Virus record (IMG/VR): IMGVR_UViG_3300021091_000011
Length of the DNA: 64,000 nt
Source: a virus
Taxonomy: Duplodnaviria > Caudoviricetes
Direction: 5' to 3' (one strand)
Shown here piece by piece: positions 1 to 60,982 of this stretch; the stretch's first letter is position 1; each line of letters begins with the position of its first letter. Under the pieces are notes generated by a model. It did no database searches. It was not told the DNA's origin and saw nothing but the letters and a program-made list of their open reading frames with translations. A program made the position numbers and the translations under genes.

Positions 1-454
1 GCTGAATCGACGTAAAGCGGGTCAGGTCATACGTCGTGCCGTGATAGGGAATACCGACAACACGGACCTTCAAACCGTCTTGGAAGAAAACAACTTCGTG
101 TTGGTCGTACAGCGGACGAAAAACCCCTGCGGCGTAAAGGACGCCAAGGGGCTGTTGCGGCAAGAACGCATAGTCGCCGTAAATCGAATCGTGATTGCCA
201 GGAACGCAGTAAACCGGACACGGATAATCGGCATGGTGCTCGACGGTGCGCCGGACGAGTTCATGCGAGTTTCGAGTAGGCGACTTGATATGGAAGAAGT
301 CACCACCGTCGATAATGGCGTGGGCGTTGACCTTGCGCGCTACGTCTCGCACTTGGCCTAACTTGTCGAACACCGTGTTCGCCCAATCATCGGTGCGAGA
401 TGCGGGCGGGCGGTCAGACAAATGCACGTCAGTTCGCCACACGAGTCGAATCAC
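1..454 (-). CDS. sbcD: SbcD/Mre11-like metallophosphoesterase nuclease, 5' part only (runs off left edge; not in ORF track)
   Basis: Manual translation from GTG at 454: MIRLVWRTDVHLSD...IIDGGDFFH...VPGNHDS. These are the DxH, GD and GNHD calcineurin-like motifs. Same operon as the SbcC-like ATPase. Confidence 0.85.
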   Translation of the reverse strand, partial: MIRLVWRTDVHLSDRPPASRTDDWANTVFDKLGQVRDVARKVNAHAIIDGGDFFHIKSPTRNSHELVRRTVEHHADYPCPVYCVPGNHDSIYGDYAFLPQQPLGVLYAAGVFRPLYDQHEVVFFQDGLKVRVVGIPYHGTTYDLTRFTSIQ

Positions 455-1473
455 GAATCACCAAATAAATCGAACACGGATTCACTAGATTCCTCTGATT
501 CACCCGAAGAAACCGGAGGAGATTCACCACGAATCCTAGATTCGGCTAACTTTACATACTCAGGATTTAGTTCACAACCAACAAAGTTACGGCCAAGACG
601 GAGGGCTACCGCCCCCGTCGTGCCCGAACCCGAAAATGGGTCTAGCACGAGTCCGTCATTTGAACTTCCAGCGAGAATCATCGGCTCTATTAATTCTTCG
701 GGGAAAGTAGCGAAATGTGCGCCTTTATAGGGCTTCGTCGTGATCGTCCAGACGGAACGGCGGTTGCGCGTTTCGGCAACGGTCACACCATCCGGCCGCA
801 AGAACCCTCTGCGTGTCTGTCCATGCTTGCCCATCTGCGCGTTCTTACCGTTGTTGTTTAGAACCGTCGCGCCCGCGTGGATCGCAGGCTCTGCAATAGC
901 GGCGGCATCGTAGTAGTACCGCTCGGACTTCGCCAAAAGAAACAGGTATTCGTGCGCCTTCGTGCAGCGGTCGGTCACGCTTTCCAGCATCGGGTTCGGC
1001 TTCGACCAGATGATGTCCTGCCGCAGATACCAACCGTCCGCTTGCAGGGCGAATGCTACGCGCCACGGGATGCCGACGAGGTCTTTGGGTTTGAGGCCAG
1101 CAGGGATTGATCGCGCTCGAATCCGCTGGCCGGTGAACCCTCCAACCTTTGATAAATCTCCCGCGCCAGTGTTCGCATACGAATCCCCCAGATTCAGCCA
1201 CAGCGTCCCGTCGTCCCGCAGCACCCGCCGCACTTCCCGGAACACCTCGACCAGATTGGCGACGTAGTCTTCCGGCGTGTCCTCAAGGCCGATTTGACCA
1301 TCGTGACCGTAATCTCTCAAACCCCAATACGGAGGCGAAGTCACGCAAGTATGAACTGATTTCTCGGGCATCGACTTTAGAGACTCGATGCAATCCCCGA
1401 TGTAAATCGTCGCTGAGTTTCGATTATCACCGAAACCATGACTCAAAGTGATTTTGTTGCTGATTTGGGTCAC
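451..1473 (-). CDS. Amino (N6A/N4C) DNA methyltransferase, beta class
   Basis: Motif IV VTSPPY precedes motif I LDPFSGSGTTG. GTGA overlaps with both neighbours. Confidence 0.92.
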   Translation of the reverse strand: MTQISNKITLSHGFGDNRNSATIYIGDCIESLKSMPEKSVHTCVTSPPYWGLRDYGHDGQIGLEDTPEDYVANLVEVFREVRRVLRDDGTLWLNLGDSYANTGAGDLSKVGGFTGQRIRARSIPAGLKPKDLVGIPWRVAFALQADGWYLRQDIIWSKPNPMLESVTDRCTKAHEYLFLLAKSERYYYDAAAIAEPAIHAGATVLNNNGKNAQMGKHGQTRRGFLRPDGVTVAETRNRRSVWTITTKPYKGAHFATFPEELIEPMILAGSSNDGLVLDPFSGSGTTGAVALRLGRNFVGCELNPEYVKLAESRIRGESPPVSSGESEESSESVFDLFGDS

Positions 1474-2543
1474 GAATCACCAAATAAATCGAACACGGAT
1501 TCACTAGATTCCTCTGATTCACCCGAAGAAACCGGAGGGGATTCACCACGAATCCTAGATTCGGCTAACTTTACATACTCAGGATTTAGTTCACAACCAA
1601 CAAAGTTACGGCCAAGACGGAGGGCTACCGCCCCCGTCGTGCCCGAACCCGAAAATGGGTCTAGCACGAGTCCGTCATTTGAACTTCCAGCGAGAATCAT
1701 CGGCTCTATTAATTCTTCGGGGAAAGTAGCGAAGTGCGCGCCTTTATAGGACTTGGTCGTGACCGTCCACACGGAGCGGCGGTTGCGGGTTCCCGTGTCG
1801 CCCCAGATGCGCTCTCCTGTTTGGCAATTGTTAGTGCCGCACCCGTCGTGCCACCCCTCAGAGGATTTATCCCTCGGCTTCGTCGGCGCACTTGAGGCGC
1901 TTTCCTTCACCGCCTCCGCGTCGTAGTAGTACCGCGCCGACTTCGCCAGCAGGAAGATGTACTCGTGCGCCTTCGTGCAGCGGTCGGTCACGCTTTCCGG
2001 CATCGGGTTCGGCTTGTGCCAGATGATGTCCTGCCGCAGATACCAGCCGTCAGCCTGCAACGCGAAGGCAACACGCCACGGGATGCCTACGAGGTCTTTG
2101 ACTTTCAACCTATCTGGCCTGCCCGGCTTGAACGAGTTGGGCGGAATAGCGGTTTCCACGGTTCCCCAACCCTTGCCTTCTAAATCCTCGCTGCGAGTTG
2201 ACCACCATGAACTTTTGCGTTTTGCGCCCATTCCCCAGTTGCTTGCATACGAGTCCCCCAAATTCAACCACAGCGTCCCATCATCCCGCAGAACGCGCCG
2301 CACTTCGCGGAACACCTCGACTATCTTAGCGACGTAGTCTTCCGGAGTGTCCTCCAAGCCGATTTGACCATCGTGACCGTAATCTCTCAAACCCCAATAC
2401 GGAGGGGACGTCACGCAAGTATGAACTGATTTCTCGGGCATCGACTTTAGAGACTCGATGCAATCCCCGATGTAGATCGTCGCTGAGTTTCGATTATCAC
2501 CGAAACCATGACTCAAAGTGATTTTGTTGCTGATTTGGGTCAC
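1470..2543 (-). CDS. Amino DNA methyltransferase, beta class; paralogue of 451..1473
   Basis: Same SPPY and DPFSGSGTTG motifs. Near-identical N- and C-terminal DNA, with two divergent internal segments. Confidence 0.92.
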   Translation of the reverse strand: MTQISNKITLSHGFGDNRNSATIYIGDCIESLKSMPEKSVHTCVTSPPYWGLRDYGHDGQIGLEDTPEDYVAKIVEVFREVRRVLRDDGTLWLNLGDSYASNWGMGAKRKSSWWSTRSEDLEGKGWGTVETAIPPNSFKPGRPDRLKVKDLVGIPWRVAFALQADGWYLRQDIIWHKPNPMPESVTDRCTKAHEYIFLLAKSARYYYDAEAVKESASSAPTKPRDKSSEGWHDGCGTNNCQTGERIWGDTGTRNRRSVWTVTTKSYKGAHFATFPEELIEPMILAGSSNDGLVLDPFSGSGTTGAVALRLGRNFVGCELNPEYVKLAESRIRGESPPVSSGESEESSESVFDLFGDS

Positions 2544-3556
2544 GAATCACCAAATAAATCGAACACGGATTCTTCCGGTTTGATGCAATGCGGGGAGAAC
2601 CATATAACCTCTTTGGTTGCGTTCTCGTACCCCTTTTTGTTTTGATTCCCGTACCCGCCTGAAGCCTTCCAACGATACGGAACCCAACCTTCTCGTAGCA
2701 GGGAATCGTGCTCATCATATCCACAAAGAGCGACACGCATATCATCCCGCGTGCCGGACTTTATGGCCCAATCACGAACTTGGGATGCAATACCATTGCC
2801 CATCCCACCCGAACCATAATCCATAGTGCCCGTGTCATAGGGTGGATCGAGGAAAACCCCGCAAACCCCCATACCAAATGGGACGGAATCTCCGGTAACA
2901 CGAGTCCAATCACCCGAGCAAACGCGAACCTTACGCAATCGAGCGGCAAGCTCATTAAAGTAAAGAGTTAGTGCGTCTTTACCCATATATGATCTAAGAA
3001 CGCCTTTACCAGATCCCCCATATTGGGGGATCTGGCAATTTATGCCTTGCGTACCGCTCAAACGGGGAATCTGGCGTTTTATGCCTTGCGTGCCGCCACT
3101 AACTTTCCCAAAACCATCCCCCTTACGAGTCCAAGGGCCATTACCCGTACACCAACCCGTGCCAATCCATGCGGAGATACCCCAAACACACCAACCTGCG
3201 GCTTTCACATCGAACCATTCCGGATCGAGGATGAGCCGATCTGTAATGTCCTCTTTGTGCTCAACAAGCCATAAATGACGAGCATGGAGATCGCACTCAT
3301 TTACGGGCCAATCCGCAAAATGCGCCACCGCTGCGGGGTCTGCCTGAACAGCCCGCCAGAAGTTACATAATAGGGCATCTTTGTCGTTGACCGTTTCAAT
3401 GCCATGAAACGGTAAAGGACGCCCTAGAAGAACGGCACCCGAGCCAAAAAAAGGCTCAACGTAAGATCGAACATCCCCGAATCTACGCCACACTTCAGCG
3501 GCTACTTTACTCTTCCCACCGAAGTATGGGAAAGGGGCTTCTAACGTGTTGCTCAA
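2540..3556 (-). CDS. Dam-family (D12 class) N6-adenine DNA methyltransferase
   Basis: PFPYFGGKS, YVEPFFGSGAV, VNDKD and FLDPPY motifs in alpha-class order. Confidence 0.9.
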   Translation of the reverse strand: MSNTLEAPFPYFGGKSKVAAEVWRRFGDVRSYVEPFFGSGAVLLGRPLPFHGIETVNDKDALLCNFWRAVQADPAAVAHFADWPVNECDLHARHLWLVEHKEDITDRLILDPEWFDVKAAGWCVWGISAWIGTGWCTGNGPWTRKGDGFGKVSGGTQGIKRQIPRLSGTQGINCQIPQYGGSGKGVLRSYMGKDALTLYFNELAARLRKVRVCSGDWTRVTGDSVPFGMGVCGVFLDPPYDTGTMDYGSGGMGNGIASQVRDWAIKSGTRDDMRVALCGYDEHDSLLREGWVPYRWKASGGYGNQNKKGYENATKEVIWFSPHCIKPEESVFDLFGDS

Positions 3557-3644
3557 TGGAATTACCCTCGGGCATTTTTTGGGTGCGGTTTCAATACGCG
3601 ATCTGCGCGATAGCGCAGATCACTTGAAAGTTTTTCGAGCGGTT

Positions 3645-4859
3645 CTATGGCTCCGATTTTTTCCAGACCCAAATCGGCTCGCAAAAACTGCTAAACAGGG
3701 CGTCGGAGCCTATTGCTTGCCGATCACTAGGACGAACAGGTAAGCGCAATCCAACCGCACCCTGATAAACGGCATTGGGCAGCGTTGTGATAAAGTCGTT
3801 CATGGGATCACAAATGCTGTTTATCAAACGGATAAACCCGCCTTCTTCACGCTCATCTGCACGGACGTCTGCAATGTTGACGCACAAGTGCCCGCCAACT
3901 TTCAAGTTATCCCAAGCAAGTGCTAAGGTCTTGAAAAGAAAGTCCTGCAACCATGCGTCCAAACGCTTGTATCTGATCCATGATTGCGTTTGATCTTTGG
4001 TGTAGCGTTCTTTGTCGAAATAGGGCGGCGAAGTGAAAGCAATATCGAACGGCCCGTCCAACTGCGTCAAGTCCTCGGCAGGACTGCATATCAGGTTGCA
4101 CGTCTTTGGTGTGAACGTGCTGAACCAATCGAACAGGTCACCGTCGAGGTTTCTATTGTAGGCTTCGACTTGGGCCGCATAGCCGCCATGCAGACGGAAG
4201 TTCGGATCAATGCCCGTGTAGTGCGTAACCTTGTCGCACGCGAGCGCCGCTGATAACCGATCACCCCAACCCGCAGACAAGTCCAGCACACGGCCACCAC
4301 CATAAAGGTCATACACGGCTTTCGCAGCCGAAGGCCGGAACTGCGCGGCGACATACTTCCTAATAGAGCCTGCGGTCCTGATCTCAGAAGGGGTTATCTT
4401 TGTTACCCCGAAAGAAAACAAAGCCTTGAATAAACCCCTCCGCAGCGATGGTGTCGCCCAACTCCGCAAAGCAGAAGGTGATGAAGAAAGATCAGTAGCG
4501 TTTCTGTTTGCCTGATGAAAGTAGTCAGAAGAACGTGCGCCGACGTTGCTACGGTCGATATACAAATCCTGTTTGTGATACGAGTAGGGGAAATCAGTTT
4601 CCCATGGCTCGCGCTTCAACAATAGCCGCGTATCAAGACTTCGCAGCCGCAAGAAATCAGTCGTAGCCTGTTCAATCGTCGTATGCCGCATCGGATATGG
4701 CATACCAGACTTCTCGACTGCTTCTTGAAGCAGGTCGATGATTTGATCCTGAGTGAGCGTGGCGTTCAAATCGGACCACAAAGGCTCGTCGATATCGAAC
4801 TCTTGTCCCCTTACTAGGGATTCCCAAGTAATCACGTCGCGTGCCCACAAGTCGGGCAC
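3645..4859 (-). CDS. DNA methyltransferase (motif I before motif IV)
   Basis: VLDLSAGWGDRL (SAM-binding-like), FTSPPYF (catalytic) and C-terminal EPIWVWKK. Confidence 0.8.
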   Translation of the reverse strand: MPDLWARDVITWESLVRGQEFDIDEPLWSDLNATLTQDQIIDLLQEAVEKSGMPYPMRHTTIEQATTDFLRLRSLDTRLLLKREPWETDFPYSYHKQDLYIDRSNVGARSSDYFHQANRNATDLSSSPSALRSWATPSLRRGLFKALFSFGVTKITPSEIRTAGSIRKYVAAQFRPSAAKAVYDLYGGGRVLDLSAGWGDRLSAALACDKVTHYTGIDPNFRLHGGYAAQVEAYNRNLDGDLFDWFSTFTPKTCNLICSPAEDLTQLDGPFDIAFTSPPYFDKERYTKDQTQSWIRYKRLDAWLQDFLFKTLALAWDNLKVGGHLCVNIADVRADEREEGGFIRLINSICDPMNDFITTLPNAVYQGAVGLRLPVRPSDRQAIGSDALFSSFCEPIWVWKKSEP

Positions 4860-6010
4860 TCGCCCATCGCGTGCAAAGCGTCATGTGCTTCTTGCACCGC
4901 GTTGGCGTGTTGTTCTCGGGATGCGGACAACGAATCCGTCAAGAGATTCACGTCGGTCAAACCAGACGCATAGCGCACCGACCAATCCCGAATCTTGGCG
5001 ACGCCCGCAGGGTACTTGGCGATCCGCTCGGCACTCGGCAACGGCGGTAAATCTAAATCCTGCGCGTCTTTTTCCAGAGTCTTTTTCAGGAGGGCGCTAC
5101 GCCGCAAGTCTTCCAAACCGGACAAAGAAAAAGAAAAAAGCGGCGTCGTGACGTGAAGATTATACTTATGTGAGTTACTACGCGCGTTTTTGAGGCGGGC
5201 AGCGAGGGCGGCGGCGGCGTGAGATTCGTCGGCGGCGGTTTTAGCCGAGCACGCGCTCGAATCAGGGACGCTTTTAGCCGTAAATCCCGCGATTGGCGCT
5301 AAATCCTCACGGGATTTACGGAGCCTTTCGGCTAAATCTTTCAGGCTGGCGATCTCGCGGGCCATATCTCGCAGCGCGTTCAAGTCCACCGTGTTGATGC
5401 CCTCTAACACGGTGTCCAAGCCGTCGAACTTCTGAGCACGCTCTTGCAAGCGGGTCATATCCGCACGGCGCACCTTGATTTCCGAAGCGATGGTCCTGCG
5501 GTCGGATTCACTCGCCCGAAGCGCGTCAGACAACTTGCCCACGCGCTCCACGTCCGAAAGAGCCTCGGCCACGACGGAACCCGGACGGTCTACCAAAAAC
5601 AGCGTGCCGTCAAACTGACGAGCAATCTGCGGCCATAGGCCATCGGAACCCGCGCTAATCTCGCGCACGCCCAAAGCCTCAACCTCGGGGGGCACGCCAC
5701 GACCGACGCCTTCGAGCGCCTTGCCGTCTAGGACATAGCGATTGATCGCCTTGCCCTTGCCCTCGGGCTTTTCGTTGCCCTTTTCCCAAGTGAGCGTGTG
5801 CCCATCGTCGAACGACAGGTCAACGGTCAAATGAGCCTCGCCTTTACGGACGAGTGGGCCAGCGGGTGCGTTCGTGAACGCACCACGAACGGCGCGCAAA
5901 GCCGCCGTCTTGCCAGAATTGTTCGAGCCTGTGATTACCGTCAGGCCGGAAACACGAATCGTGGCGTCTTTGATCGACTGAAAGTTTCGGACACGAACAC
6001 GGAAAGGCAT
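4832..6010 (-). CDS. sbcC: SbcC/Rad50-like ATPase N-terminal half, ending at the CxxC zinc hook
   Basis: VRNFQSI, Walker A GSNNSGKT, coiled coil and terminal CPTCG. No ABC signature or Walker B seen. Confidence 0.75.
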   Translation of the reverse strand: MPFRVRVRNFQSIKDATIRVSGLTVITGSNNSGKTAALRAVRGAFTNAPAGPLVRKGEAHLTVDLSFDDGHTLTWEKGNEKPEGKGKAINRYVLDGKALEGVGRGVPPEVEALGVREISAGSDGLWPQIARQFDGTLFLVDRPGSVVAEALSDVERVGKLSDALRASESDRRTIASEIKVRRADMTRLQERAQKFDGLDTVLEGINTVDLNALRDMAREIASLKDLAERLRKSREDLAPIAGFTAKSVPDSSACSAKTAADESHAAAALAARLKNARSNSHKYNLHVTTPLFSFSLSGLEDLRRSALLKKTLEKDAQDLDLPPLPSAERIAKYPAGVAKIRDWSVRYASGLTDVNLLTDSLSASREQHANAVQEAHDALHAMGECPTCGHAT

Positions 6011-6018
6011 GGACTATA

Positions 6019-6384
6019 TTACGCCGATGCGTTGCCGGAACGTGCCCTCTTTAGACGCGCGGCCCACCATCGCAGACGATTTTGCGTGCTCGGCGGGACG
6101 TAAGCGAAGTCGCCATGAAACGGCACCTGTTGACCACCACGGTCGCTATTCCAATGCGCGTCCGCACGCTCGACCGTATCGACGAAGGCTTCCACGTCGA
6201 AAGCCAACGCATCGAAACGAAGCAAGGCGTCGTGATAATGGGCCTCGGCGTCTTTAGCGGCCTGCACCAAACCGACCTTCGCCAAATGATGCCCACCGTC
6301 GCCGTTTAGAACGGCGAGCAGATTCCCAACGGCGGCACGGCCTTCAGGCGTGTTGAGTTCTTCGGCGAGCGTCAAGTCGGGCAT
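6019..6384 (-). CDS. Hypothetical protein
   Basis: Fills the gap in a co-oriented operon with tight spacing. Confidence 0.6.
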   Translation of the reverse strand: MPDLTLAEELNTPEGRAAVGNLLAVLNGDGGHHLAKVGLVQAAKDAEAHYHDALLRFDALAFDVEAFVDTVERADAHWNSDRGGQQVPFHGDFAYVPPSTQNRLRWWAARLKRARSGNASA

Positions 6385-6387
6385 AGG

Positions 6388-8883
6388 TCACTCGTCCAAA
6401 AGACCGCTAACTTCGCCCATGAGGTCGCCTTGCGGCTCGTCCTCACCAACGACGGGCTCGTAATCCTCGTCCTCGACAAACTGCTTGGCCGATTCACCGC
6501 TGCCGAGCACCGGACGAACAATCGAGTCGATCAACTTGAAATCGGCGGCGTTATCGACCATGTGCTGCCGCATTTTCTCAATGCCCTGCAACTTGATCGC
6601 AGAACCATCGGGCTTGGTCCAAGTGAACCAGCCCGCGCCTTGCTTTTTAATGAAGCCGTGCGAGATGGCGATTTCCAGAATCGACCTGATATTATCAACG
6701 CCTTGACCGCCACGCAGGTAGAAGATTTCCTCACGACCCTGCGACCGAGACATCTTGCACTTGACGGCCTTGACCTTGACGACGGAGCCGGAGACTTTAT
6801 CTTCGACCTTGTGCGTCAGGTTGTTCATTTCCTTCGTGTTCTCGTATTGCACGCGACGCAATTCAAGACGAACGCTGGCGTAGAACTTCCAAGCGTTACC
6901 ACCTTGGGGCTTGGTGCTCGGGCCATGCCCCATCTTGCCGATTTCCGCACGGATTTGGCTGATGCCGATGACCGCCGTACCCGAACGCGCGATGATGCGC
7001 TTCAGGTTGGGCAATTCCTGTGACCAAACGGCTTGCACTTCACCGACCTTGCCTTGCTCGGCGGCGTCGTTCAGGTCACGGTCAGTCAAACGCCGTGGGA
7101 TCGCCGCACCCACCGAGTCAAACACGATCAAGTCCACACCAGCGGCGGCGTAAATCAGCGCGTACTTGATACCGTCTTCGAGATTGTCCGGCTGAAGCAA
7201 CTCAAACTTGGTCTCATCGGTGACGGGCACGCCAAGGGCCATGGCGTAATCGGGCACAATGTCGTTTTCCCAATCTATGTAGAGAACCGTGCCGCCCTCA
7301 CGACAAACCTGAGCCGCAGCCGAGAGCGCAATCGAGGTATTGTGCGTCACAAACCCATTAGCGATGAAAGAAGCAGACTTGCTCATTGCAAAATCAAAAG
7401 TCGGCTCTGGATCATTCTCAGTCACCGACTCAACACGATCATAGTAATAGTTTGCGTGTTGGATCTCACGAAGGCGAGCCAAAAGAATACGATCACCACG
7501 ACCCTCTAAAGCCGAGAGAATCAGGTCAAGTCGATTATAAGTGAGTCTTGCACGGGGATTCGGACCCATGTAATCGGCCATCAAATGATGGTCTTCACGA
7601 GTCGTTGACGACAACGACCTGTAAAGGTCCTGAAGTAAGCCACCGACATTGGGGATAGAGTCGTGATTAGTGCCCCCTCCGGATGCAGGTTGACACATGA
7701 AAGTCTCATGCTGTCCCGCACGAGATTTCGAGCGGGTGCCAATCTTACGAATGAACTTACGAGCCTCTTCGCCATCAACCCGCAAGACCCAATAATCATT
7801 GTCGGGGTAAGCGGCGACTTTTTTCTCGCGCAAGATGCTGATGATCCCCAGGCCAAGCAAAACCATCTTTACTTCATCCAAGAGTAAGCGGCTTGCAGAG
7901 GAAACTTCAATACCACTATGATCGACTGAGCACTCGCAATCAAAGTAGCCTTGAAGAAAAGCAATCATGCTTCGATCATCAAAGCATCGAATCTTCCGAC
8001 CAAGATGCTTTTCAGGACTATTACAAGGGACCCAACCAAGGTCCGAATAGAAAGTCTGGACGAATTCCTTGCCGTTGAAGTTATAGCTCACGGACCCAGG
8101 ACTGCGCTCATTTGGGTACGCCAGCGCGGGGATACCCAAAAGAACGGGCATACGGTTTTCGATGAAATGCTTAATGTCAGCGTCATTATTCGTGACGGAC
8201 ACACGAGCGGGGTCCAAGTGGCCGTCTGCCACGATGAGACCAAGCATATATGGCGTGTCAAGGTCCGTAGAGGAACCCTCACCCTTAGCAAACTTTCGAG
8301 ACGTGACGAGATAGTCACCAGGCTCGATCCTGCTAGTGTGCTTCCAACCCCAAAAACCGTTGGGACTCATCACCAGATGTGGGTGGTTTGCCGTACTTCG
8401 AACGGCACTACCTGAAAAAGTCTGGATCTTATACGTTGTTTTCCGATTGTTGTGCGTGAAGTGAGTCGTAGTCTCAACTTCTCCATCACGATTAAAGAGG
8501 GGGAAAGTTTTTTCGGTAGTCTGCGACTTACAAAAAGGTTCGAGCCCTTGACTTGAAAAAATCTCTCCAACCGTGAGAATCCCTTGAGGGGTATGGATGA
8601 GGGTGTCTGCGGGCAGGCATTTACCTGCGCCCTCGTGTCCCCATATCTGACTCACACGGCCACGCGGGAAACCAGGACACGGCGCAACGCCAAACGAATT
8701 CGGGATGCCGCCGATCAAATGATCGACCACAATCGAGCCGGACGAGACGTGAGGGAGTGATTCCTTCATATCGTCGGACGACATCTTGACGCGGATATTC
8801 TCGAACTCGTCCTTGCGCTTATCGAGCGCGAAAGCACGGGCTTTCGCCAATGCACCTACCGGAGTCGCTGATGCTTTAGCCAT
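6388..8883 (-). CDS. recA: RecA recombinase containing an intein
   Basis: After splicing Walker A reads GHEGAGK|TS. Also YIDWEN, LIVFDSVGA, GGNAWKFYASVRLE and an acidic tail. Start placed at MAKAS (8883), overlapping the ruvC stop. Confidence 0.95.
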   Translation of the reverse strand: MAKASATPVGALAKARAFALDKRKDEFENIRVKMSSDDMKESLPHVSSGSIVVDHLIGGIPNSFGVAPCPGFPRGRVSQIWGHEGAGKCLPADTLIHTPQGILTVGEIFSSQGLEPFCKSQTTEKTFPLFNRDGEVETTTHFTHNNRKTTYKIQTFSGSAVRSTANHPHLVMSPNGFWGWKHTSRIEPGDYLVTSRKFAKGEGSSTDLDTPYMLGLIVADGHLDPARVSVTNNDADIKHFIENRMPVLLGIPALAYPNERSPGSVSYNFNGKEFVQTFYSDLGWVPCNSPEKHLGRKIRCFDDRSMIAFLQGYFDCECSVDHSGIEVSSASRLLLDEVKMVLLGLGIISILREKKVAAYPDNDYWVLRVDGEEARKFIRKIGTRSKSRAGQHETFMCQPASGGGTNHDSIPNVGGLLQDLYRSLSSTTREDHHLMADYMGPNPRARLTYNRLDLILSALEGRGDRILLARLREIQHANYYYDRVESVTENDPEPTFDFAMSKSASFIANGFVTHNTSIALSAAAQVCREGGTVLYIDWENDIVPDYAMALGVPVTDETKFELLQPDNLEDGIKYALIYAAAGVDLIVFDSVGAAIPRRLTDRDLNDAAEQGKVGEVQAVWSQELPNLKRIIARSGTAVIGISQIRAEIGKMGHGPSTKPQGGNAWKFYASVRLELRRVQYENTKEMNNLTHKVEDKVSGSVVKVKAVKCKMSRSQGREEIFYLRGGQGVDNIRSILEIAISHGFIKKQGAGWFTWTKPDGSAIKLQGIEKMRQHMVDNAADFKLIDSIVRPVLGSGESAKQFVEDEDYEPVVGEDEPQGDLMGEVSGLLDE
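7339..8619 (-). mobile_element. Intein (427 aa) with LAGLIDADG homing endonuclease in the RecA P-loop
   Basis: Begins CLPADT after GK, ends FVTHN before T. Endonuclease blocks MLGLIVADGH and FLQGYFDCEC. Confidence 0.95.
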
Positions 8884-9544
8884 TTTGTTCGTCCTGTTGA
8901 GTCTGTTGTGACCATAGGAAAAAGCGTTCATCCTCGCGGTAAATCACGCCACGCTGGACTTCTTTGCCTGCGTTCTTACCGCGCATGAACTTCTTGATCT
9001 CCGTGAAATACTTGGCTTCCACGGTAGATAAGCCCCCCTCTAGCAACTCTGAAGAAATCAGACGCCAGAAGCGGGCCGAAAGCCGAGCGACCAAATAGGC
9101 GTCGGCCTCATTGTGGTTCCAAGTGGAACCACCTGCGTCTTTAACCGACGCATCCACCATATCCTTCTTGTCCATGACCCAACCTTTCGGGCGGGCAAGG
9201 GACTCGCGGGCATGGGCCTTGACCTGCAAGGGCGACCAGAAAACCACGTCGCAGCGTTCAGTCTTGAGGGCTTCGCACGAGTATAGAAACAACCCGTACA
9301 TCCCCTCCGAAAAAAGATTGTCGAAGACGGGGAATTCTATGCCAACCCTGTCGGGCTTGACTTCTCGAATCAAAGCCCGCAGGGATTCGCGTTGCGCGAT
9401 GTATCGGTCTACGAACGTCATATCTGCTGGCGTCTGGAAGCGTCCCCTGCGCGAGCATCGTGACGTTGAACCTATCGGATGGGAGTCGTCGTGAACTGCC
9501 CAACCGTAGTTTGTAAGCGAGGGGTCAAGCCCTAATACGATCAC
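8876..9544 (-). CDS. ruvC: RuvC-like Holliday junction resolvase
   Basis: VLGLDPSLTNYGWA, GIEFP and NEADAYLVA acidic catalytic pattern. Probable GTG start at 9544. Confidence 0.85.
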   Translation of the reverse strand: MIVLGLDPSLTNYGWAVHDDSHPIGSTSRCSRRGRFQTPADMTFVDRYIAQRESLRALIREVKPDRVGIEFPVFDNLFSEGMYGLFLYSCEALKTERCDVVFWSPLQVKAHARESLARPKGWVMDKKDMVDASVKDAGGSTWNHNEADAYLVARLSARFWRLISSELLEGGLSTVEAKYFTEIKKFMRGKNAGKEVQRGVIYREDERFFLWSQQTQQDEQNG

Positions 9545-9561: not shown

Positions 9562-10257
9562 TCAAACGAGGTCGTCGAGCAGACCGTCAGCGTCCTTAGA
9601 GACGCGGCTGGAATTCGGAGAGGCAACGTCCATCCCCAACTTCTCACGAATCTCGTCAAGCGAGAGGTCGCGGGCAAGGTCACGACGGATGCCGTTCGCA
9701 ATCGCGTCCACGTCGGCGTAAATGCTCTTGAGAAGAGCCTGCGCGCCCGGCTTCTCGCTCTTGCGAAGCGCGTCCATCACGGACGTATTATCCGGCGTGA
9801 TGGTGATCTTCTTGAACTTGCTGTCGGTGCAAGTGATCTGCACGTCGGTCTTGACCAGCGGGAACTTGTCATTCACGCGGGCCAGAATCTCGTACTTGTC
9901 CGACGAGAAAATCCACGGAAGAACCTCGACGTCCTGCAAGCGGGACATATCAGCGTTGCCCTTATTGTCCGTGGGCCACACCGCAATCACCGTCGCAATC
10001 GCCGTCTTGGGCTTGCCGAACTCCGCGTAGGCCGGACCCTTGTAGAGAAAGTAGCCGACGCCTTCCTTGTAGATACGCTCGCAGTTCGTGAACCGAAGGT
10101 TCTTGCTGAGATTCGGCGTGCCGTCCGCGTTGTATTCCCGATACCAGACGAACGAAACCAAGTAAGTCTTGCCCGCCTCGGGGTCAAACTTCTTGGTCTT
10201 GCGATTCAGAGCCTTGTCGCCATCACCGAAACCGAAATCAACGAAACCGTCACTCAT
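9562..10257 (-). CDS. Putative single-stranded DNA-binding protein
   Basis: Aromatic-rich beta core, acidic/hydrophobic tail (DADGLLDDLV) and position in the recombination operon. Family not confirmed. Confidence 0.5.
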   Translation of the reverse strand: MSDGFVDFGFGDGDKALNRKTKKFDPEAGKTYLVSFVWYREYNADGTPNLSKNLRFTNCERIYKEGVGYFLYKGPAYAEFGKPKTAIATVIAVWPTDNKGNADMSRLQDVEVLPWIFSSDKYEILARVNDKFPLVKTDVQITCTDSKFKKITITPDNTSVMDALRKSEKPGAQALLKSIYADVDAIANGIRRDLARDLSLDEIREKLGMDVASPNSSRVSKDADGLLDDLV

Positions 10258-10364: not shown

Positions 10365-11150
10365 TCAGATAAAATCGAGCAGGTCGTCGATAGATACGTC
10401 TGTGTTCTTCGCGGGCGCGGGTTCCGAAGGATCGACGTCCTCAAGCAGCGCGTCCAAATCCGTCTGATCGCCGGACGTGCCCTTGAAAGCGTCATTGACG
10501 GGCAAAGGCTCAGGCTTCTCAAAGCCCACGGCCTTCGGCTGAATCTTGCCCAAGTCGGATTCGGCCTTGCCCTCAAGCAAATCGTTGATGTCGCGCATGG
10601 TCACCGCGTCAACCGCAGGAGCCGAGTCCAAAATCTGCGCGCTATTGCCCGCTTTAGACCCCCACTTCGCACCCAAGCCGACTTCCTCTTGGCAGAGGCG
10701 AATCTGATCCTTCAGGCGACCTTGCGAATCTTTCAGATCGGTGCGCTTGGACTTGATCACGGTCATCAGGGCTTCCAAATCCTGAATCGTGATCGCAAGG
10801 CGATCTAGTTCTTCACGGCGTTCGCGCATCTTGACGGTCGCAATCGCGTCACGGTCTTTGACGTTGCGGCCCGCACGCACTTCGGGATCGTTCGCCAACA
10901 TATCCTGCATGGCGAGGTCAAAATCGAGTTGCGCGGCGCGATGGGCGCGCTTGTAAAGCTGAAGCCAATGGCTCACGCGCACGAACAATTGCTCGCAGCG
11001 CGTCAAATGATCACGGCTCTCCGCGACCTTGTTGTTCAGCCGCTTGGGACCAAACTCAAGCGGGTCATTGTCGAGCGCGACGTTCATAGATTCGATTTCA
11101 CGAAAAATCGAATCTACGGTGGCTTCGTCTACAAGCGGCAAATCAGTCAT
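10365..11150 (-). CDS. Coiled-coil protein with acidic tail (possible recombination mediator)
   Basis: Long helical N-half, C-terminus SIDDLLDFI, operon context. Confidence 0.45.
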   Translation of the reverse strand: MTDLPLVDEATVDSIFREIESMNVALDNDPLEFGPKRLNNKVAESRDHLTRCEQLFVRVSHWLQLYKRAHRAAQLDFDLAMQDMLANDPEVRAGRNVKDRDAIATVKMRERREELDRLAITIQDLEALMTVIKSKRTDLKDSQGRLKDQIRLCQEEVGLGAKWGSKAGNSAQILDSAPAVDAVTMRDINDLLEGKAESDLGKIQPKAVGFEKPEPLPVNDAFKGTSGDQTDLDALLEDVDPSEPAPAKNTDVSIDDLLDFI

Positions 11151-11596: not shown

Positions 11597-14500
11597 TTAT
11601 ACGCCTTGCGGCGTTTCCCCACCCCCCTTAGCATTTGCTATGCGGAAGGCCAAAAGCGTTTTTCGATGCTCGGCGGCGTCGTTTTGCACGGCTTTCGTAA
11701 CTGCCGACGCTTGGCCCACAATCAAAACCTTTTTTCGAGCGCGTGTAATCGCCGTGTAAAGCAGATTGCGCTGTAACTGCCGCCCGAACGTAGATAGCAA
11801 GGGCAAAACAATCACGTCATACTCTTGACCCTGCGAGTTCCAGCCGGAAAAACCGTTCTGGATAAACCTGTGCGTTTCAGGAACCTCGACGCACATCGAA
11901 GGGCCATAGGCGGGCTTAATACTGACGATCTTTTCGTGGTGATACCGCGTGCGGGCACTCAACGCGGGAAAATGCTGAAGCACCTGCACCGAGGGTGCGG
12001 ATCGATTACGCCCATGACCCAACACGCGGGCTTCATCAACCGTAATAGGTATTAAGTTATCGTTGGGATAATCTACTCGGCGTTTCGCTTGCAAGTGAAT
12101 CGAGTCCGAATGATCAAAACCGATTCGATTAAAGAATCTGTCTAAATCTCGACCACGAATAGCAAGATTTTTATTTTTCATTGAAGTACGCGCGACAATA
12201 CCTTCATCTAAAAGCATCGCACGCAACGCGGCGTTTGCAGAATCGTTCTTTGAACGAACCCAAATGCAATCGAGCAGGCTTTCGCTATCCAACGGATATT
12301 CGTACTTGACCATCGCGGACAAGAAATACCCTCGCAAAAACGCTCGACGAACGGATTTGTTCGACGCAAGTATCAAACGAGGGATTTCATACCCTCGACT
12401 TCGATAGAGTTCTGGAAAGTTTTTCCAGAACCAATCCATGATGAAACGTAAATACATACGAATCAGATACGGACGATTCTCGGCAAGCGTTGATTTAGGA
12501 TGCGTGCCGAATAACCTGTAAAAAACGTCATGGATTTTATTTAGTATCGACCCAACATCGGTTCTATAATGCGAATAAACACGATTATTGTCTTTAGGGT
12601 GCAAGTTGACATAAAAAGTCTTGTGTTTGACTTTCGCAAAAGCAGAAAAAATGCCGATTAGTTCCGCGATTTCTTCATTTAAGAATGGTGGGTATTTTTT
12701 CTTCCCGATTTTCGGCGCGTCTAACGGAAGCAACGTCTTATCATCGGCATAAGACGGCGAAGGGACCAAGTAAAGCCAATCATTCTTGCGAAGTTCCCCC
12801 GCCTCTTTGCGAACGTATCGTCCGTCAACGCGGCTCCAAACGTCGATGCCGTGTTCGGGCGTCATATATAATGTGTAGCCGCTCGTGGTTTGAACCTTGA
12901 GCAGCGGGCCACTTGGGTACTCGGTCTTATTGACGAATGGCCTCACGCCGTCCGGCGTGCCAATATTGCCCGAATCCGGCAAATGCTTGATCTGGTAAAG
13001 CCCGCCATCGTGCCAAGTAATCGTCGAAGGGTGGACGCATTTGTGGACGGTCTGCGCGTAAGCCAAGCGCAACGTCTTAGCCGCGTCAGACATTGGGAAT
13101 CGAACGAGTGCTGACGGCGTGCCCGGAACGCCAAACACATTGGCCTCAATCTCTTTCGCCACACGGTCAATCCGGCGCACGGTGCCCACGTCGCCGTTGT
13201 AGACACCCTTCTGGTAATCGTTCTTGACGACCATGATTCGGTCGCCCTCGCGCACAACGGAAGTGCCGATCTTCGTCTCGCTCATGCCCGACATCGGAGG
13301 GTTTAACTGCGAACGAATACGGTCATTGAGCACCGTCACGCCCGCATCGCCCGAATGACGTGGCGACAAGACTTGAAAGTTCGACCGCTTCTCGTAAAGC
13401 GCCTGCGTCAACCGCAGGATAATCTCAGACGCCTCGGTCTCCGTGCTGGCAGGCACGATCACGAAATCACGCCCATCGGATTCCGGAGTCCGGCCTTTAT
13501 GAACGGCGTGCGCCGCAAGCACGATGCCGTTTGTGTCCTCTTGCCGAAAGATGCGATCCAAATGCGTGTGCGGAAACGACTTGCTCTCAACCAAGTCGCC
13601 CAACACATCACCCGCGCCCACCGAAGGCAATTGATAAGGGTCGCCGACGAACACCATTCGGCAATCTAGTTTGGTGCCGGACAAGACTCGATGGAGCATA
13701 TTCAGGTCCACCATCGAAGTCTCGTCAACAATCACCACGCTGGCCGGATGCGGATTTCCAGGTCCATACCCCCACGTTTCGTCCGTAGGGCTGTTCACCG
13801 TTTTCTTCGTGTCCGTGTCACCCACGAAACCCTCGTAGGCGACCTCACGATCATCCGACTCGCCGTATTTGCCCTTTGCTCCAAAAGCGCGATGAATCGT
13901 AAAAGCGGGCGCATTGACGACATTGGCGAGCCGTTTGGCCGCGATGCCCGTCGGGGCTACGAGCAAGAAACTAATGCCCGTGTCTTTAAGCAAGGTCACG
14001 ACGGCGCGCAAAGCCGTGGTTTTGCCTGTTCCGGGCAAGCCCGTGATCAAGCAGACGTTGTCGGTCAATGCCGAAAGAGCGGCGTTGAGTTGATCCTCGG
14101 TCAGCGTGATACCAGAACCCAATGACCAATCGGCCAATGCCGACTTGACGATGGTTTTGTGGTCCGCACCTGATTCTACGGAAGCCTGCGCCTGCGGCCC
14201 CACGCGAGCGAAAAGCGGGCTGTAATCCTGCGAAGGCTTGGTCTGCAAACGGCTCACTAAAGTCGTCGCGCACGTTTGTTCCAAGTCGTAAATCGTCGGA
14301 TCGTAAAGTGCGACGGTGCCCGCTTTCGTGTTTCGGTCTAGTACCAGCGCGTTTGACCTAACGAGGTCTTTCACGGCTTGGGCAACCGCAGCGTCATTCG
14401 CATTTGGAACCAGAGTAAGGACGTTCGATAGGACGTCGCTCATCGTAGAATACAAATGCCCTTCGGACGCCGTGTTGTTCATAGTCGCCAAAACCGCGCC

Positions 14501-15124
14501 ACACATACGACTTGGCGAGTCCAATGGCACGCCGAGCCTGCGAGCGATTTCGTCTGCCTGCGCGAAGGTGATGCCGTCCACTTGCACGAGTGCCCAAGGG
14601 TCTTTCGTGACGATGGTTTCAACGTCGGTGGAGTATTTCTTCCAGACGCGCTCGATCATCGCGTTGGGCACTCCGGCCTGAGCGAGAAAAGCGGCGGCGT
14701 ACAAATGCGCCTTCGCCGCCTTCCAACGCTCACCAACGTAAGCAAGTTCAGGCGGTAAACCTTCACCCTCTAACACGGACAAAAGGGATTGGTTGCCTGC
14801 GTGCCCCATCAAATGCACCCGCACGCCAGGCCCAATGCCCTGCGCGGATAGAATCGAAAGCACACGGTCATTCGACCAATGCTCGGGAACGACCGGACTT
14901 CGCTCTACGGCGATCTGACGTCCATAGGTCGGGTGAACCGTGTAACGTCCCTCAAAGCAAACCCAAGTACCCGGCACAATCGCCTGACCTGAGAAATGCC
15001 CTTTGGCCGTGACTTGACCACCGGAGTCGTCAAGGCTGATTTTTACGATTCGGAAACCAGCACCGTCATCGTAAGTGACGGTGCTGATGCGTCCCGAAAA
15101 GACCTGTAAAGTAGAGTCCGACAT
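11597..15124 (-). CDS. recD: RecD2-like SF1B helicase containing an intein
   Basis: HhH-like N-region, GLPGTGKT, VDETSM, GDPYQLPSV, spliced motif AYAQTVHK|SQGQEY and LLYTAITRA. Confidence 0.93.
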   Translation of the reverse strand: MSDSTLQVFSGRISTVTYDDGAGFRIVKISLDDSGGQVTAKGHFSGQAIVPGTWVCFEGRYTVHPTYGRQIAVERSPVVPEHWSNDRVLSILSAQGIGPGVRVHLMGHAGNQSLLSVLEGEGLPPELAYVGERWKAAKAHLYAAAFLAQAGVPNAMIERVWKKYSTDVETIVTKDPWALVQVDGITFAQADEIARRLGVPLDSPSRMCGAVLATMNNTASEGHLYSTMSDVLSNVLTLVPNANDAAVAQAVKDLVRSNALVLDRNTKAGTVALYDPTIYDLEQTCATTLVSRLQTKPSQDYSPLFARVGPQAQASVESGADHKTIVKSALADWSLGSGITLTEDQLNAALSALTDNVCLITGLPGTGKTTALRAVVTLLKDTGISFLLVAPTGIAAKRLANVVNAPAFTIHRAFGAKGKYGESDDREVAYEGFVGDTDTKKTVNSPTDETWGYGPGNPHPASVVIVDETSMVDLNMLHRVLSGTKLDCRMVFVGDPYQLPSVGAGDVLGDLVESKSFPHTHLDRIFRQEDTNGIVLAAHAVHKGRTPESDGRDFVIVPASTETEASEIILRLTQALYEKRSNFQVLSPRHSGDAGVTVLNDRIRSQLNPPMSGMSETKIGTSVVREGDRIMVVKNDYQKGVYNGDVGTVRRIDRVAKEIEANVFGVPGTPSALVRFPMSDAAKTLRLAYAQTVHKCVHPSTITWHDGGLYQIKHLPDSGNIGTPDGVRPFVNKTEYPSGPLLKVQTTSGYTLYMTPEHGIDVWSRVDGRYVRKEAGELRKNDWLYLVPSPSYADDKTLLPLDAPKIGKKKYPPFLNEEIAELIGIFSAFAKVKHKTFYVNLHPKDNNRVYSHYRTDVGSILNKIHDVFYRLFGTHPKSTLAENRPYLIRMYLRFIMDWFWKNFPELYRSRGYEIPRLILASNKSVRRAFLRGYFLSAMVKYEYPLDSESLLDCIWVRSKNDSANAALRAMLLDEGIVARTSMKNKNLAIRGRDLDRFFNRIGFDHSDSIHLQAKRRVDYPNDNLIPITVDEARVLGHGRNRSAPSVQVLQHFPALSARTRYHHEKIVSIKPAYGPSMCVEVPETHRFIQNGFSGWNSQGQEYDVIVLPLLSTFGRQLQRNLLYTAITRARKKVLIVGQASAVTKAVQNDAAEHRKTLLAFRIANAKGGGETPQGV
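11837..13039 (-). mobile_element. Intein (401 aa) with degenerate LAGLIDADG domain
   Basis: Begins CVHPST, ends GFSGWN before S. Visibly more AT-rich than the flanking exteins. Confidence 0.92.
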
Positions 15125-29109: not shown

Positions 29110-29763
29110 ATGCCTAGCAACACCGTTAGACTGATTCTCGGCGATAGCCTAGTCAAACTCAAAGACCTAGCGCCAAACTCAGTAGACGCCGTAGTTTCAG
29201 ACCCACCCTATGAATTAACCGCTAACAAAAAAGGCGGCTCAGGGGTTGCCAGCATCAATCTTGAAAGTCCATACGGACGTTCACGGATCGGAACGGGCAA
29301 CGGCGGCGGCTTTATGGGTATGAAATGGGATTCGACCGGAATCGCCTTTTCACCCGAACTTTGGGGCGAATGCTTTAGGATTCTAAAACCTAACGGCGTT
29401 ATCAAAGCCTTTTCAGGCACGAGAACTTTTCACCGAATGACCCAAGCCCTGAAAAAATCAGGATTCGTAGACTTTGAAATTCACGCTTGGACTTACGGCT
29501 CAGGCTTCCCGAAGTCTATGGACGTGAGCAAGCAGATCGACAAGGCGGCGGGCGCGGAGCGGGAAGTGGTGGGGCGTGTGGCAGGCATGGGTAAGCAAAA
29601 CCCTGAATGGAACGGCACCGCACAAGGACGCGCTGAAAACTCGTTCAAGTCGGAATATGATGCAACCGCACCCGCCACCGATGCCGCTCGGCAATGGTCC
29701 GGGTGGGGCACCGCTCTAAAGCCCGCTTGGGAACCAATCATCGTCGCAAGAAAGCCAATATGA
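29110..29763 (+). CDS. Beta-class DNA MTase N-terminal (catalytic DPPY) polypeptide lacking motif I
   Basis: VVSDPPY, GFMGMKWD, YGSGFPKS and GWGTALKPAWEPIIVARKPI*. Confidence 0.85.
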   Translation: MPSNTVRLILGDSLVKLKDLAPNSVDAVVSDPPYELTANKKGGSGVASINLESPYGRSRIGTGNGGGFMGMKWDSTGIAFSPELWGECFRILKPNGVIKAFSGTRTFHRMTQALKKSGFVDFEIHAWTYGSGFPKSMDVSKQIDKAAGAEREVVGRVAGMGKQNPEWNGTAQGRAENSFKSEYDATAPATDAARQWSGWGTALKPAWEPIIVARKPI

Positions 29764-30480: not shown

Positions 30481-31283
30481 ATGATTCGCTTGGTTTTAGG
30501 GGACTGCATCGAGAAAATGCAGGATATCCCCCCAGGAACCATTGATGCGATCATCAGCGACCCTCCCTACGGCTGAATATATCAGGACTAGAATTCATGG
30601 GGAAAGAATGGGACGCACCTTGGAAGTCAAACGGATGGCAAGCCGGAGGCGGGTTCTCTAAACCTGGTATTGGCGAACGCCATACCGCATGGCCTAGTTT
30701 CACCGCGACTTCTAAGTTCGGTGCCACAAATCCAACTTGTGAGACTTGTGGGGGACGTGCGCGAGGTAAAAAACGCTGCGGTTGCGCTGAACCACAATGG
30801 AAAGCCATCGGCAAACGCCGCCACGTCGAAAATGAAGGCTTACCGTCTGACGTTACGAGTTCAGGGATGAGTAATCACCTTCGCCACTTTCAAGATTGGT
30901 GCGAACTTTGGTCAAGCCAATGCTTTAGAATCCTAAAACCTAACGGCGTTATCAAAGCCTTTTCGGGGACACGAACTTTTCACCGTATGACCCAAGCCCT
31001 GAAAAAATCAGGATTCGTAGACTTTGAAATTCACGCTTGGACTTACGGATCAGGCTTCCCGAAGTCTATGGACGTGAGCAAGCAGATCGACAAGCAAGCG
31101 GGCGCAGAACGAACGGAAGTCATAAAGCCGTTCAATGACGAAAACGGTTGGAACGCGAACGGAACCACGGGCGACCACGCCTATACCGCACCCGCCACCG
31201 ACGCCGCCCGTCAATGGTCCGGTTACGGCACCGCTCTAAAGCCCGCTTGGGAGCCGATCATCGTCGCAAGAAAGCCAATATGA
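30481..31283 (+). CDS. Second MTase N-terminal polypeptide, interrupted by a 14-nt insert after DPPY
   Basis: MIRLVLGDC...SDPPYG* followed, in a shifted frame, by GLEFMGKEWD...ARKPI*. Confidence 0.8.
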
Positions 31284-31738
31284 TCGTTCACGTCTTACGA
31301 AAGCCATTGTCAGGCACGGTCGCTCAAAACGCTTTGGCTCATGGAGCCGGAGCATTGAACATCGACGGATGCCGGATTGCTGTTTCTAGCGAAGAAAGAA
31401 AAACCTACGACGCCAATATGCGTGCGCTTGAACGGTACGCAGACGGCAGAGAAAAAATCGGGCAGTTTGAGGGTGGCTGGAAAGCAGACCCGTCCCGTGT
31501 CAAAAACGTGGGCGCTCGCTGGCCCGCTAATCTCGTCCATGATGGAAGCGAGCACGCCCTAGATAATTTTCCCGAGGCGGGAAATGGATGGAAGAAAAAT
31601 TACGGTGATGAAGTCTATGCCGTTGAAGGCCGTCATTATTCCGGAGGTTCTTTTGGCGGTGGTGGTTTTCTAGGGGGTAGCACTTATACGGACTCAGGCT
31701 CGGCATCTCGATTCTTTCAACAAGTGATAATCAAATGA
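31280..31738 (+). CDS. Free-standing MTase middle (variable/TRD-like) segment
   Basis: MIVHVLRKPLSGTVAQNAL, GALNIDGCR, RWPANLVHDGS, DSGSASRFF; ATGA overlap. Confidence 0.8.
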   Translation: MIVHVLRKPLSGTVAQNALAHGAGALNIDGCRIAVSSEERKTYDANMRALERYADGREKIGQFEGGWKADPSRVKNVGARWPANLVHDGSEHALDNFPEAGNGWKKNYGDEVYAVEGRHYSGGSFGGGGFLGGSTYTDSGSASRFFQQVIIK

Positions 31739-32163
31739 TCGTTCACGTCCTGAGAAAGCCATTGTCAGGCACCGTCGCTCAAAACGCCCTGCAACACGGC
31801 TGCGGGGCATTGAACATCGACGGATGCAGGGTTAGTTTGTCTTCCGATGAAAATCCAGACAAGTTGAGCGCGAGAAGCGGTGGGAACCGTGGTTTTGCTG
31901 AAGATTATGTAGGCGGGGTAACACGAAATTTACCTGCTGGTTGGGATTGCAGCAAGGGGCGTTGGCCCGCGAATCTCGTCCATGATGGAAGCGACGAAGT
32001 TGTAGAGACGTTTCCTGAGAGCAACCGCTGGTTCAACGCACCGAGAAATAGCGATGGAAAAGGCAAAGACGGCCAGATTTTTGATACTCACCGTGGCAGC
32101 GGGATGGGTGGCGGCGACTCCGGTTCGGCATCTCGATTCTTTCAGCAAGTAACCCTCAAATAG
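31735..32163 (+). CDS. Second free-standing MTase middle segment
   Basis: Same three constant blocks with different variable inserts. Confidence 0.8.
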   Translation: MIVHVLRKPLSGTVAQNALQHGCGALNIDGCRVSLSSDENPDKLSARSGGNRGFAEDYVGGVTRNLPAGWDCSKGRWPANLVHDGSDEVVETFPESNRWFNAPRNSDGKGKDGQIFDTHRGSGMGGGDSGSASRFFQQVTLK

Positions 32164-60777: not shown

Positions 60778-60982
60778 TTCAGGCACTTCCCTTCGTCCAT
60801 CTGCAATAGCCCGCAGGCACGATGCCAATAGCAAAGCCGCTCGAAATCAGGGCCGCTTACTTTACCCCGCGAATCTTGCGGGTCAGGACCATAGACCTTT
60901 GCGTGAATCGGAGGCCACAAATCCCCGTTCGCACAAGTTATATCCGCACGATTAGCATCCGGTTTCATTCGCTTCACGTCAC
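60684..60982 (-). CDS. Hypothetical Cys-containing protein
   Basis: GTGA coupling to the polymerase stop; overlaps the ParB-like ORF by about 90 nt. Confidence 0.45.

Follow-up and report, generated by a model that had tools for sequence, protein, structure and literature searches.

The 64,000-nt stretch of viral DNA analysed here, referred to throughout as the window (Caudoviricetes; IMG/VR record IMGVR_UViG_3300021091_000011), carries close to its beginning a stack of DNA methyltransferase (MTase) genes flanked by an sbcC-like gene and by sbcD. Three of these MTase genes close with one and the same 33-nt segment, and this segment, together with the C-terminal peptide that it encodes, is the subject of the present analysis. 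Across 1-6400 every gene is encoded on the minus strand; in the direction of transcription, the SbcC/Rad50-like N-terminal half is followed by MT4, an 88-nt spacer, the Dam-type MTase, MT2, MT1 and sbcD. A megablast search against GenBank phages brought up no close relative, the matches being limited to ~200 nt of the conserved MTase core of unrelated phages. Relatives of the locus were found by searching viral contigs with the SbcC-like protein, which gave 11 loci, mostly in phages of 220-500 kb.

MT1 (451-1473, minus strand, 340 residues) is a beta-class N6A/N4C DNA methyltransferase, as evident from its matches to the Pfam family N6_N4_Mtase (PF01555; E = 1.6e-54, 185.6 bits, the cut-off being 26.7 bits) and to phrog_67 (E = 5e-81), and MT2 (1470-2543, minus strand, 357 residues; N6_N4_Mtase E = 1.4e-56, 192.3 bits) is its tandem paralogue. 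The motif order of the beta class is present, SPPYW near residue 46 preceding DPFSGSGTT near residue 280. The Dam-type (D12, alpha-class) DNA adenine methyltransferase (2540-3556, minus strand, 338 residues) matches phrog_56 (E = 1.4e-22) and, over its N-terminal part only, MethyltransfD12 (PF02086; 28.2 bits, cut-off 22 bits), and its translation displays EPFFGSG and LDPPYD. MT4 (3645-4859, minus strand) is probably a DNA methyltransferase too, of a class different from the others; motif I (LDLSAGWG) followed by TSPPYF is seen in its translation, PHROG DNA MTase matches were obtained at E = 2e-6 and 5e-4, and there is a 28-nt overlap between its gene and the end of the sbcC-like one. An earlier note on this DNA had placed four MTases between sbcC and sbcD; MT1, MT2 and the Dam-type enzyme exceed the Pfam cut-offs, while MT4 remains a weak match, its N6_N4_Mtase score of 21.9 bits falling under the cut-off.

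The 33-nt segment is present on the minus strand in three exact copies, where none was expected from 100 shuffles. Copy 1 (451-483) covers the 10 codons for ESVFDLFGDS that close MT1, plus its stop codon and the GTG of sbcD; copy 2 (1470-1502) joins the end of MT2 to the GTG of MT1; and copy 3 (2540-2572) joins the end of the Dam-type gene to the GTG of MT2. Every copy encodes ESVFDLFGDS, finishes exactly at the TGA of its MTase gene and is closed by a GTGA stop/start overlap, the GTG of which belongs to the next open reading frame (ORF). The sequence past the copies is that of the MT1/MT2 N-terminus or of sbcD. The claim that one repeat ends genes of two MTase families is hence borne out without a single mismatch. 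Among the ORFs of the window, no further one besides the tailed MTases ends in xF[DE]xF. In MT1, the tail is preceded by an acidic Ser/Glu/Pro-rich linker.

A role of the segment in translation was also considered. A clear Shine-Dalgarno sequence is missing from most genes of the window, and the GGTGA of the segment is a plausible ribosome-binding site. A scan of 1-6500 for promoters and terminators yielded fewer matches than were found in shuffled sequence. The start-signal role of the tail is particular to this genome, and the conserved feature is something else, as the relatives described below indicate.

The sharing of the tail by three MTases requires qualification. The identity of the MT1 and MT2 tails is trivial, because the last ~240 nt of both genes are ~100% identical, and the sole independent sharing event is that between the Dam-type and the beta-class genes. 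The homology between these two families starts exactly at copy 3. The full-length homologues of the Dam-type MTase (41-52% identity) have short tails of their own, and it is at this position, directly after the conserved SPHC end of the family, that the shared tail stands in the window enzyme. When MT1 and MT2 were compared codon-wise, the first ~60 and the last ~80 codons displayed 97-100% nucleotide identity and the conserved catalytic core 85-90%, whereas two inner blocks, presumed to be the target-recognition parts, were only ~40% identical. Such a profile is not obtainable by point divergence, and therefore the inner part has been exchanged, or the ends have been homogenised, by recombination; MT1 and MT2 are mosaics. 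The Dam-type gene, for its part, contains an internal tandem repeat of 39 nt at 3025-3096 (33 nt, 88% identical), which duplicates a 13-residue segment (SGGTQGIKRQIPRL / SGTQGINCQIPQY) in the presumed target-recognition region.

Tails of this kind recur among the relatives at differing DNA, their peptide cores being SVFDLFG, IFNLF and GMFG. The MTase of relative L002 ends in ...SDSVFDLFGNDEG, and its sbcD has a GAGGG...ATG of its own; in this MTase end (...SESDSVFDLFGNDEG) the core peptide SVFDLFG is kept with one synonymous change, while the later codons and the sbcD start signal differ. The best match in an exhaustive search of representatives, P0002, ends in GGIFNLFDEGDE. It lies on contig L132, where two tandem beta-class MTases end in GVLGMFGSDE and GGIFNLFDEGDE, each overlapping the next gene through ATGA, and where more MTases are found nearby. 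These two tails are unlike in sequence, yet both have a hydrophobic-Phe core and acidic ends. A back-translated scan of the viral contigs for [DE]SVFDLFG returned 19 stretches, of which that on the L002 contig alone is real; the others were rejected as short or antisense frames, the one on L114 being antisense to a real gene. In an AlphaFold 2 model of MT1 (predicted TM-score 0.80), the fold ends at the helix of residues 304-314, and residues 323-340 are unstructured, with a predicted local distance difference test (pLDDT) value below 50. Such an unstructured end is as expected for a tether.

The terminal residues of the wider MTase families were examined in 145 beta-class representatives with short tails (clusters at 50% identity), using the residues after the catalytic core, the end of which was taken as ~residue 331 of MT2, and shuffled tails for the expectation. 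Qxx[LMIV]F was recorded in 32 of the 145 tails against 1.1 expected (shuffle maximum 5), P[LM]F in 32 against 0.5, and any [LMIV]F in 79 against 17.8. In other words, ~22% of the representatives carry the first motif and another ~22% the second, mostly 0-9 residues from the C-terminus. Among viral contigs, Qxx[LMIV][FLW] was counted in 23 of 80 tails of the beta class and in 5 of 18 of the Dam class, as compared to 12 of 886 C-termini of neighbouring ORFs. The same terminal motif is thus enriched on two unrelated MTase folds. The bacterial beta-clamp-binding motif has Qxx[LM]F as its core and takes the form of a pentapeptide, QL[SD]LF in the Dalrymple consensus (Q1, L4 and F5 being the most important), or of a hexapeptide, QLxLxL; the alpha subunit of Pol III uses QADMF. 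When the window tail S-V-F-D-L-F is set against this consensus, D3, L4 and F5 match, Phe stands at position 2 and Gln is missing.

A clamp is available in this phage group. The relatives encode, three genes downstream of sbcD, a DnaN-type clamp of 381 residues, which gave no match in Pfam and was recognised by profile comparison with the PDB and PHROGs. A six-sequence profile of this protein matched a dozen solved beta clamps in the PDB, several nearly over the full length (E = 1.5e-6 to 6e-4), and the protein matches the phrog_947 processivity factor (E = 4.8e-23). DnaX is encoded in the relatives and a HolB-like gene is present in the window; as the syntenic relatives possess both the DnaN-like clamp and DnaX, a cognate DnaN-type clamp would be available in the infected cell.

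The earlier note had suggested that the xFDLF tail may tether the MTases to the sliding clamp, and this was checked by modelling a complex of the L002 clamp dimer (alignment A1) with a fragment of the L002 MTase, its C-terminal 45 residues (alignment A2). The complex score was 0.62, 0.62 and 0.63 in three runs, as compared to 0.01 for the best of three controls; the control with the clamp swapped out also scored 0.01. Among solved complexes, 58 of 80 attain the mark set for this score, as do 2 of 110 mismatched pairs. The pLDDT of the partner was at least 43, and at least 38% of the contacts were common to the runs. The confident interface comprises residues 34-42 of the fragment (DSVFDLFGN), with V36, F37, L39 and F40 closest, and on the clamp side residues 168-173, 246-250, 353-358 and the C-terminal 377-381. 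Judged by position in the model, these contacts map to the C-terminal strand and to the cleft that separates domains II and III of the clamp. Known clamp clients bind the same cleft and strand, so the model agrees with the suggestion in placing the tail at the canonical site.

The stack occupies a variable position. The gene order common to the relatives is RecA, SbcC-N, slot, SbcD, PD-(D/E)XK nuclease, DnaN-like clamp, SbcC-C, coiled-coil protein, metallopeptidase-like protein and DnaX. The slot content differs among 8 relatives, being nothing, one MTase or unrelated cargo: it is empty in L005 and L006, where the sbcC-like gene and sbcD overlap, and holds MT4 only in L001 (77% identical to the window MT4), a single tailed beta-class MTase of 414 residues in L002, a 119-residue ORF in L003, a 200-residue ORF in L004 and a 462-residue, phospholipase-B-like ORF in L008. 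A fixed content among relatives, which would have spoken against an expandable stack, is accordingly not what was found.

The intergenic region 5' of the Dam-type gene (3557-3644, minus strand) is conserved, aligning with regions of L001 and L002, and is predicted to fold into a stable hairpin (-32.3 kcal/mol, z = -5.2). This hairpin has perfect 9-bp arms inside a longer stem and is only partly conserved, although the region can be aligned in both relatives; it may act as a processing site, an attenuator or an operator. The spacer of ~90 nt precedes sbcD in L001, the tailed MTase in L002 and the Dam-type gene in the window, so the tailed cargo lies between the conserved spacer and the sbcD start codon, and the spacer marks the upstream border of the slot. 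Alignment of the loci thus points to two entry points, one for MT4 between sbcC and the spacer, and one for the tailed MTases between the spacer and the sbcD start. Read in this manner, the window appears as the L001 state (MT4) plus the L002 state (a tailed beta-class MTase), with the Dam-type gene and a duplication added; the order of these recombination events is one that we infer. The proposal that MTases are added serially at the sbcD initiation region is supported by the variable slot and by the placement of the tailed cargo; MT4 is found at a different junction and has no tail.

The gene labelled sbcC in the earlier note (4832-6010, minus strand, 392 residues) codes for an SbcC-like protein with a Walker A motif, a coiled coil and a CPTCG hook at its C-terminus (Pfam AAA_23; PHROG SbcC-like/exonuclease). 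The label holds with the restriction that this is the N-terminal half only of an apparently split SbcC, ending at the CxxC hook; its length is the same in all the relatives. SbcC appears split because the 392-residue protein stops at the hook and a separate 213-residue SMC_N-like ORF is found in the relatives. L001-L010 keep this arrangement, the 213-residue ORF, whose C-terminal match to SMC_N is weak (Walker B LILLDESL), standing after the clamp gene, four genes downstream of the SbcC-like gene, as the SbcC-C candidate (L001 7887-8528). The next ORF (L001 8525-9250) encodes a Cys-containing coiled-coil protein of 241 residues. SbcC-N, SbcC-C and SbcD would work as a complex. Truncation of sbcC by MTase insertion was considered and rejected, as the length of ~390 residues to the hook is kept where sbcC and sbcD are adjacent. 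On the other side of the stack, sbcD (2-454, minus strand) encodes the N-terminal 151 residues of a Mre11-type nuclease (Pfam Metallophos, E = 1.5e-9) and runs past the window start; its GTG start sits within the GTGA closing MT1, and it is 55-93% identical to sbcD of L001-L010.

The conservation of the peptide in relatives, the motif excess in both MTase families and the complex model support docking on the predicted clamp. With fair confidence, we hold that the tail docks the MTases on the phage's DnaN-type clamp and thereby couples methylation to replication, the segment serving as a junction as well. In this reading, the interval that separates sbcD from the sbcC-like gene in this jumbo-type phage is a cargo slot gathering orphan MTases. 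The three MTase genes next to the sbcD start have a C-terminal module in common, SVFDLFGDS preceded by a disordered acidic Ser/Glu linker, which would act as a short linear docking peptide for the hydrophobic domain II/III cleft of the phage-encoded DnaN-type clamp. Clamps remaining on freshly replicated DNA would carry MTases of different specificity, and the new copies of the phage genome would receive their methyl groups ahead of cleavage by host restriction enzymes; methylation in the course of replication and an anti-restriction benefit are what such docking would be expected to bring.

The tail-coding segment would at the same time be a recombination and translational-coupling junction; because it ends in GTGA, translation of the following gene would restart at the stop codon. 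The segment and the conserved N-terminal arm would jointly supply identical DNA for the duplication or exchange of cassettes or for the acquisition of a tail. The MT1/MT2 mosaics may have arisen in this way, and the native family end of the Dam-type enzyme may have been replaced by the tail. A wider statement, which we advance tentatively and consider not quite an even matter, is that clamp docking may be a general, so far undescribed property of phage orphan DNA MTases, with small phages using a host-type Qxx[LM]F and clamp-bearing phages a co-evolved tail. Here, the tail segment may be a portable module, making any incoming MTase replisome-coupled, as well as the joint of an expandable MTase stack.

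Several points weigh against docking on the phage clamp. The window tail lacks the Gln of the canonical QL[SD]LF, and neither MT4 nor the other MTases of the window (29-32 kb) have such a tail. The C-terminus of PolA is also without the tail, and the presumed main clamp client therefore does not confirm the motif. The homologues counted are related, so that the significance of the motif excess overstates their independence, the motif being found nevertheless in many sequence contexts. The modelled pair is that of L002, which is 63% identical in SbcC-N, the window's own clamp lying outside the window. Moreover, the alignments were self-made, the job of a dimer with a peptide differs from the calibration set, and the score may reflect the model's memory of solved clamp-peptide complexes, which are well represented among structures.

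The exact DNA identity of the three copies would also be expected from a recent recombination scar, and on this explanation the 33-nt segment is a junction left by recombination or gene conversion and kept for its stop/start overlap, perhaps with GGTGA as a ribosome site, the peptide having no function. The copies do end exactly at GTGA, the longer identical ends of MT1 and MT2 point to active homogenisation, and sbcD begins with GTG in the window as against ATG in L001 and L002, as if the junction had imposed it. A mere scar nonetheless appears unlikely, as L002 keeps SVFDLFG while its later codons and sbcD start signal differ, and the two differing L132 tails keep the hydrophobic-Phe core and acidic ends. 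At this position, homologues from hundreds of unrelated phages show ordered motifs, Qxx[LM]F or P[LM]F, at a frequency far in excess of that in shuffled tails. Furthermore, the complex model picks exactly the tail residues, and most window genes do without a clear Shine-Dalgarno sequence.

The missing Gln leaves room for a docking peptide directed to another hub, such as the phage single-strand-binding protein, RecA, the neighbouring SbcCD or a packaging or localisation factor. Proteins of the replication/recombination module have acidic-hydrophobic tails of different pattern (GFGDLIL or GFGDLSL in the nuclease, IDDLLDFI, GLLDDLV, and SGLLDE in RecA), hence more than one peptide-hub system may operate. 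We give this explanation a low probability, since the homologues of ordinary phages have the canonical pattern Q-x-x-[LM]-F, and the model puts the tail in the canonical clamp cleft, the control with the clamp replaced scoring 0.01. Docking on the host beta clamp in place of the phage clamp, with the same replication-coupled methylation or with competition against host clients, is a variant of the clamp-docking explanation and not its contradiction. It draws on the canonical host-type motifs in homologous MTases of ~40-kb phages, most of which are presumably unlikely to encode a clamp of their own, and on the fit of xFDLF to positions 2-5 of the optimised bacterial motif QL[SD]LF. The Gln-less tail, however, was found only in phages of this lineage, the syntenic relatives of which encode a divergent clamp of their own, and the host clamp as the target seems improbable. 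Docking on the phage clamp is the explanation that we retain.

Further C-termini and genes of the window and its relatives were also recorded. The PD-(D/E)XK nuclease ends in GFGDLIL, GFGDLSL or GFSDFGM (L001 5526-6443; orthologues in L002-L008), and the metallopeptidase-like protein (L001 10450-10926) ends in EEIFGSDD, which resembles the MTase tails GMFGSDE and DLFGDS; from these endings, both are possible further clients of the clamp or of a hub. The N-terminus of PolA carries a conserved [WF]FDSL at or near its start (EWFDSL at ~63900 in the window, MDFFDSL at 4701 in L132), which could be the polymerase's own, N-terminal clamp-docking motif. Three ORFs of the window gave no family match: one of 231 residues (9562-10257), which starts with MSDGFVDFGFGD, ends in GLLDDLV and could be an SSB-like (single-strand-binding) protein with an acidic tail; one of 261 residues (10365-11150), which ends in IDDLLDFI; and one of 158 residues (34979-35455), which ends in AFDISEDIDD.

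More MTase-like genes are present in the window at 29110-29763, 30597-31283 and 31735-32163. Two of these ORFs, with weak N6_N4_Mtase matches, end alike in ...ALKPAWEPIIVARKPI and seem to represent the N-terminal portions of MTases split in two; separate ORFs that begin with MIVHVLRKP come after them. The same split pairs are seen in L132 (12251-18508), along with two more C-termini, DLLGL and DFLGL, which resemble the Pol IV-type clamp motif. RecA (6388-8931, 847 residues) contains an insertion of ~425 residues (~106-530) that is absent from RecA of all the relatives, as evident from tblastn matches confined to 1-105 and 531-847; an intein containing a homing endonuclease is its probable identity. 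Inteins also seem to be present in the RecD2-like helicase (11597-15124, Intein_splicing match) and in PolA (60979-63990, LAGLIDADG match).

Phage DNA is open to host restriction from replication on, and the success of orphan MTases is usually ascribed to their expression level. If the docking proposed here is true, a clamp tail would provide a physical mechanism for methylation at the fork, a prokaryotic-virus counterpart of DNMT1 on PCNA, and DNA methyltransferases would join the list of sliding-clamp clients. Owing to the motif excess, the idea is open to testing beyond this uncultured phage, on MTases of ordinary coliphages or Burkholderia phages together with the beta clamp of the host. 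The locus also presents a short shared coding segment as both functional peptide and cassette joint, which bears on the assembly of phage anti-defence arrays. The locus contributes a single tail found on both MTase families, a phage clamp of the bacterial type, a variable slot whose border is conserved, and the family-wide motif statistic.

The bacterial beta-clamp clients include Pol II, the alpha and delta subunits of Pol III, Pol IV, Pol V, MutS, MutL and Hda, and we know of no DNA methyltransferase class among the bacterial clamp partners. The window MTases resemble these clients in having a short hydrophobic peptide on a flexible terminus, predicted to lie in the domain II/III cleft, and in having homologues with the canonical form. 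They differ in that the client is a DNA methyltransferase, that the peptide is [VI]F[DN]LF followed by acidic residues and without Gln, and that the clamp is a divergent, phage-encoded one. In T4 and RB69, the gp45 clients gp43, gp33 and gp55 are likewise functionally different phage proteins with a common C-terminal hydrophobic/acidic peptide for the phage's own clamp, and the RB69 polymerase tail SLFDMFDF resembles SVFDLF. Unlike those phages, the present one would rely on a DnaN-type dimer with a DnaX/HolA/HolB-like loader and not on gp45 with gp44/62, and its polymerase is without the tail.

Orphan phage DNA methyltransferases have been described as anti-restriction genes, together with within-gene recombination in phage methylases (PMC9957025). 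The likeness lies in multiple orphan MTases per phage and in mosaic genes with swapped inner segments; at the present locus, a shared start region and the tail segment bracket the exchange units, which occupy a fixed slot in front of sbcD, and the tail itself appears to have a function. A literature search retrieved the link between DNMT1 and PCNA and no link of a phage or bacterial MTase to a clamp, its incomplete coverage making this no proof of absence. The maintenance methyltransferase DNMT1 is tethered to PCNA via a PIP-box (PCNA-interacting peptide; PMC9690074). DNMT1 is similarly a DNA methyltransferase brought to newly replicated DNA by a clamp-docking peptide, while enzyme, clamp family and motif are unrelated to those considered here. 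By the same comparison, the purpose in the phage would presumably be protection from restriction and not epigenetic maintenance, and in the phage several enzymes of different specificity share one tail.

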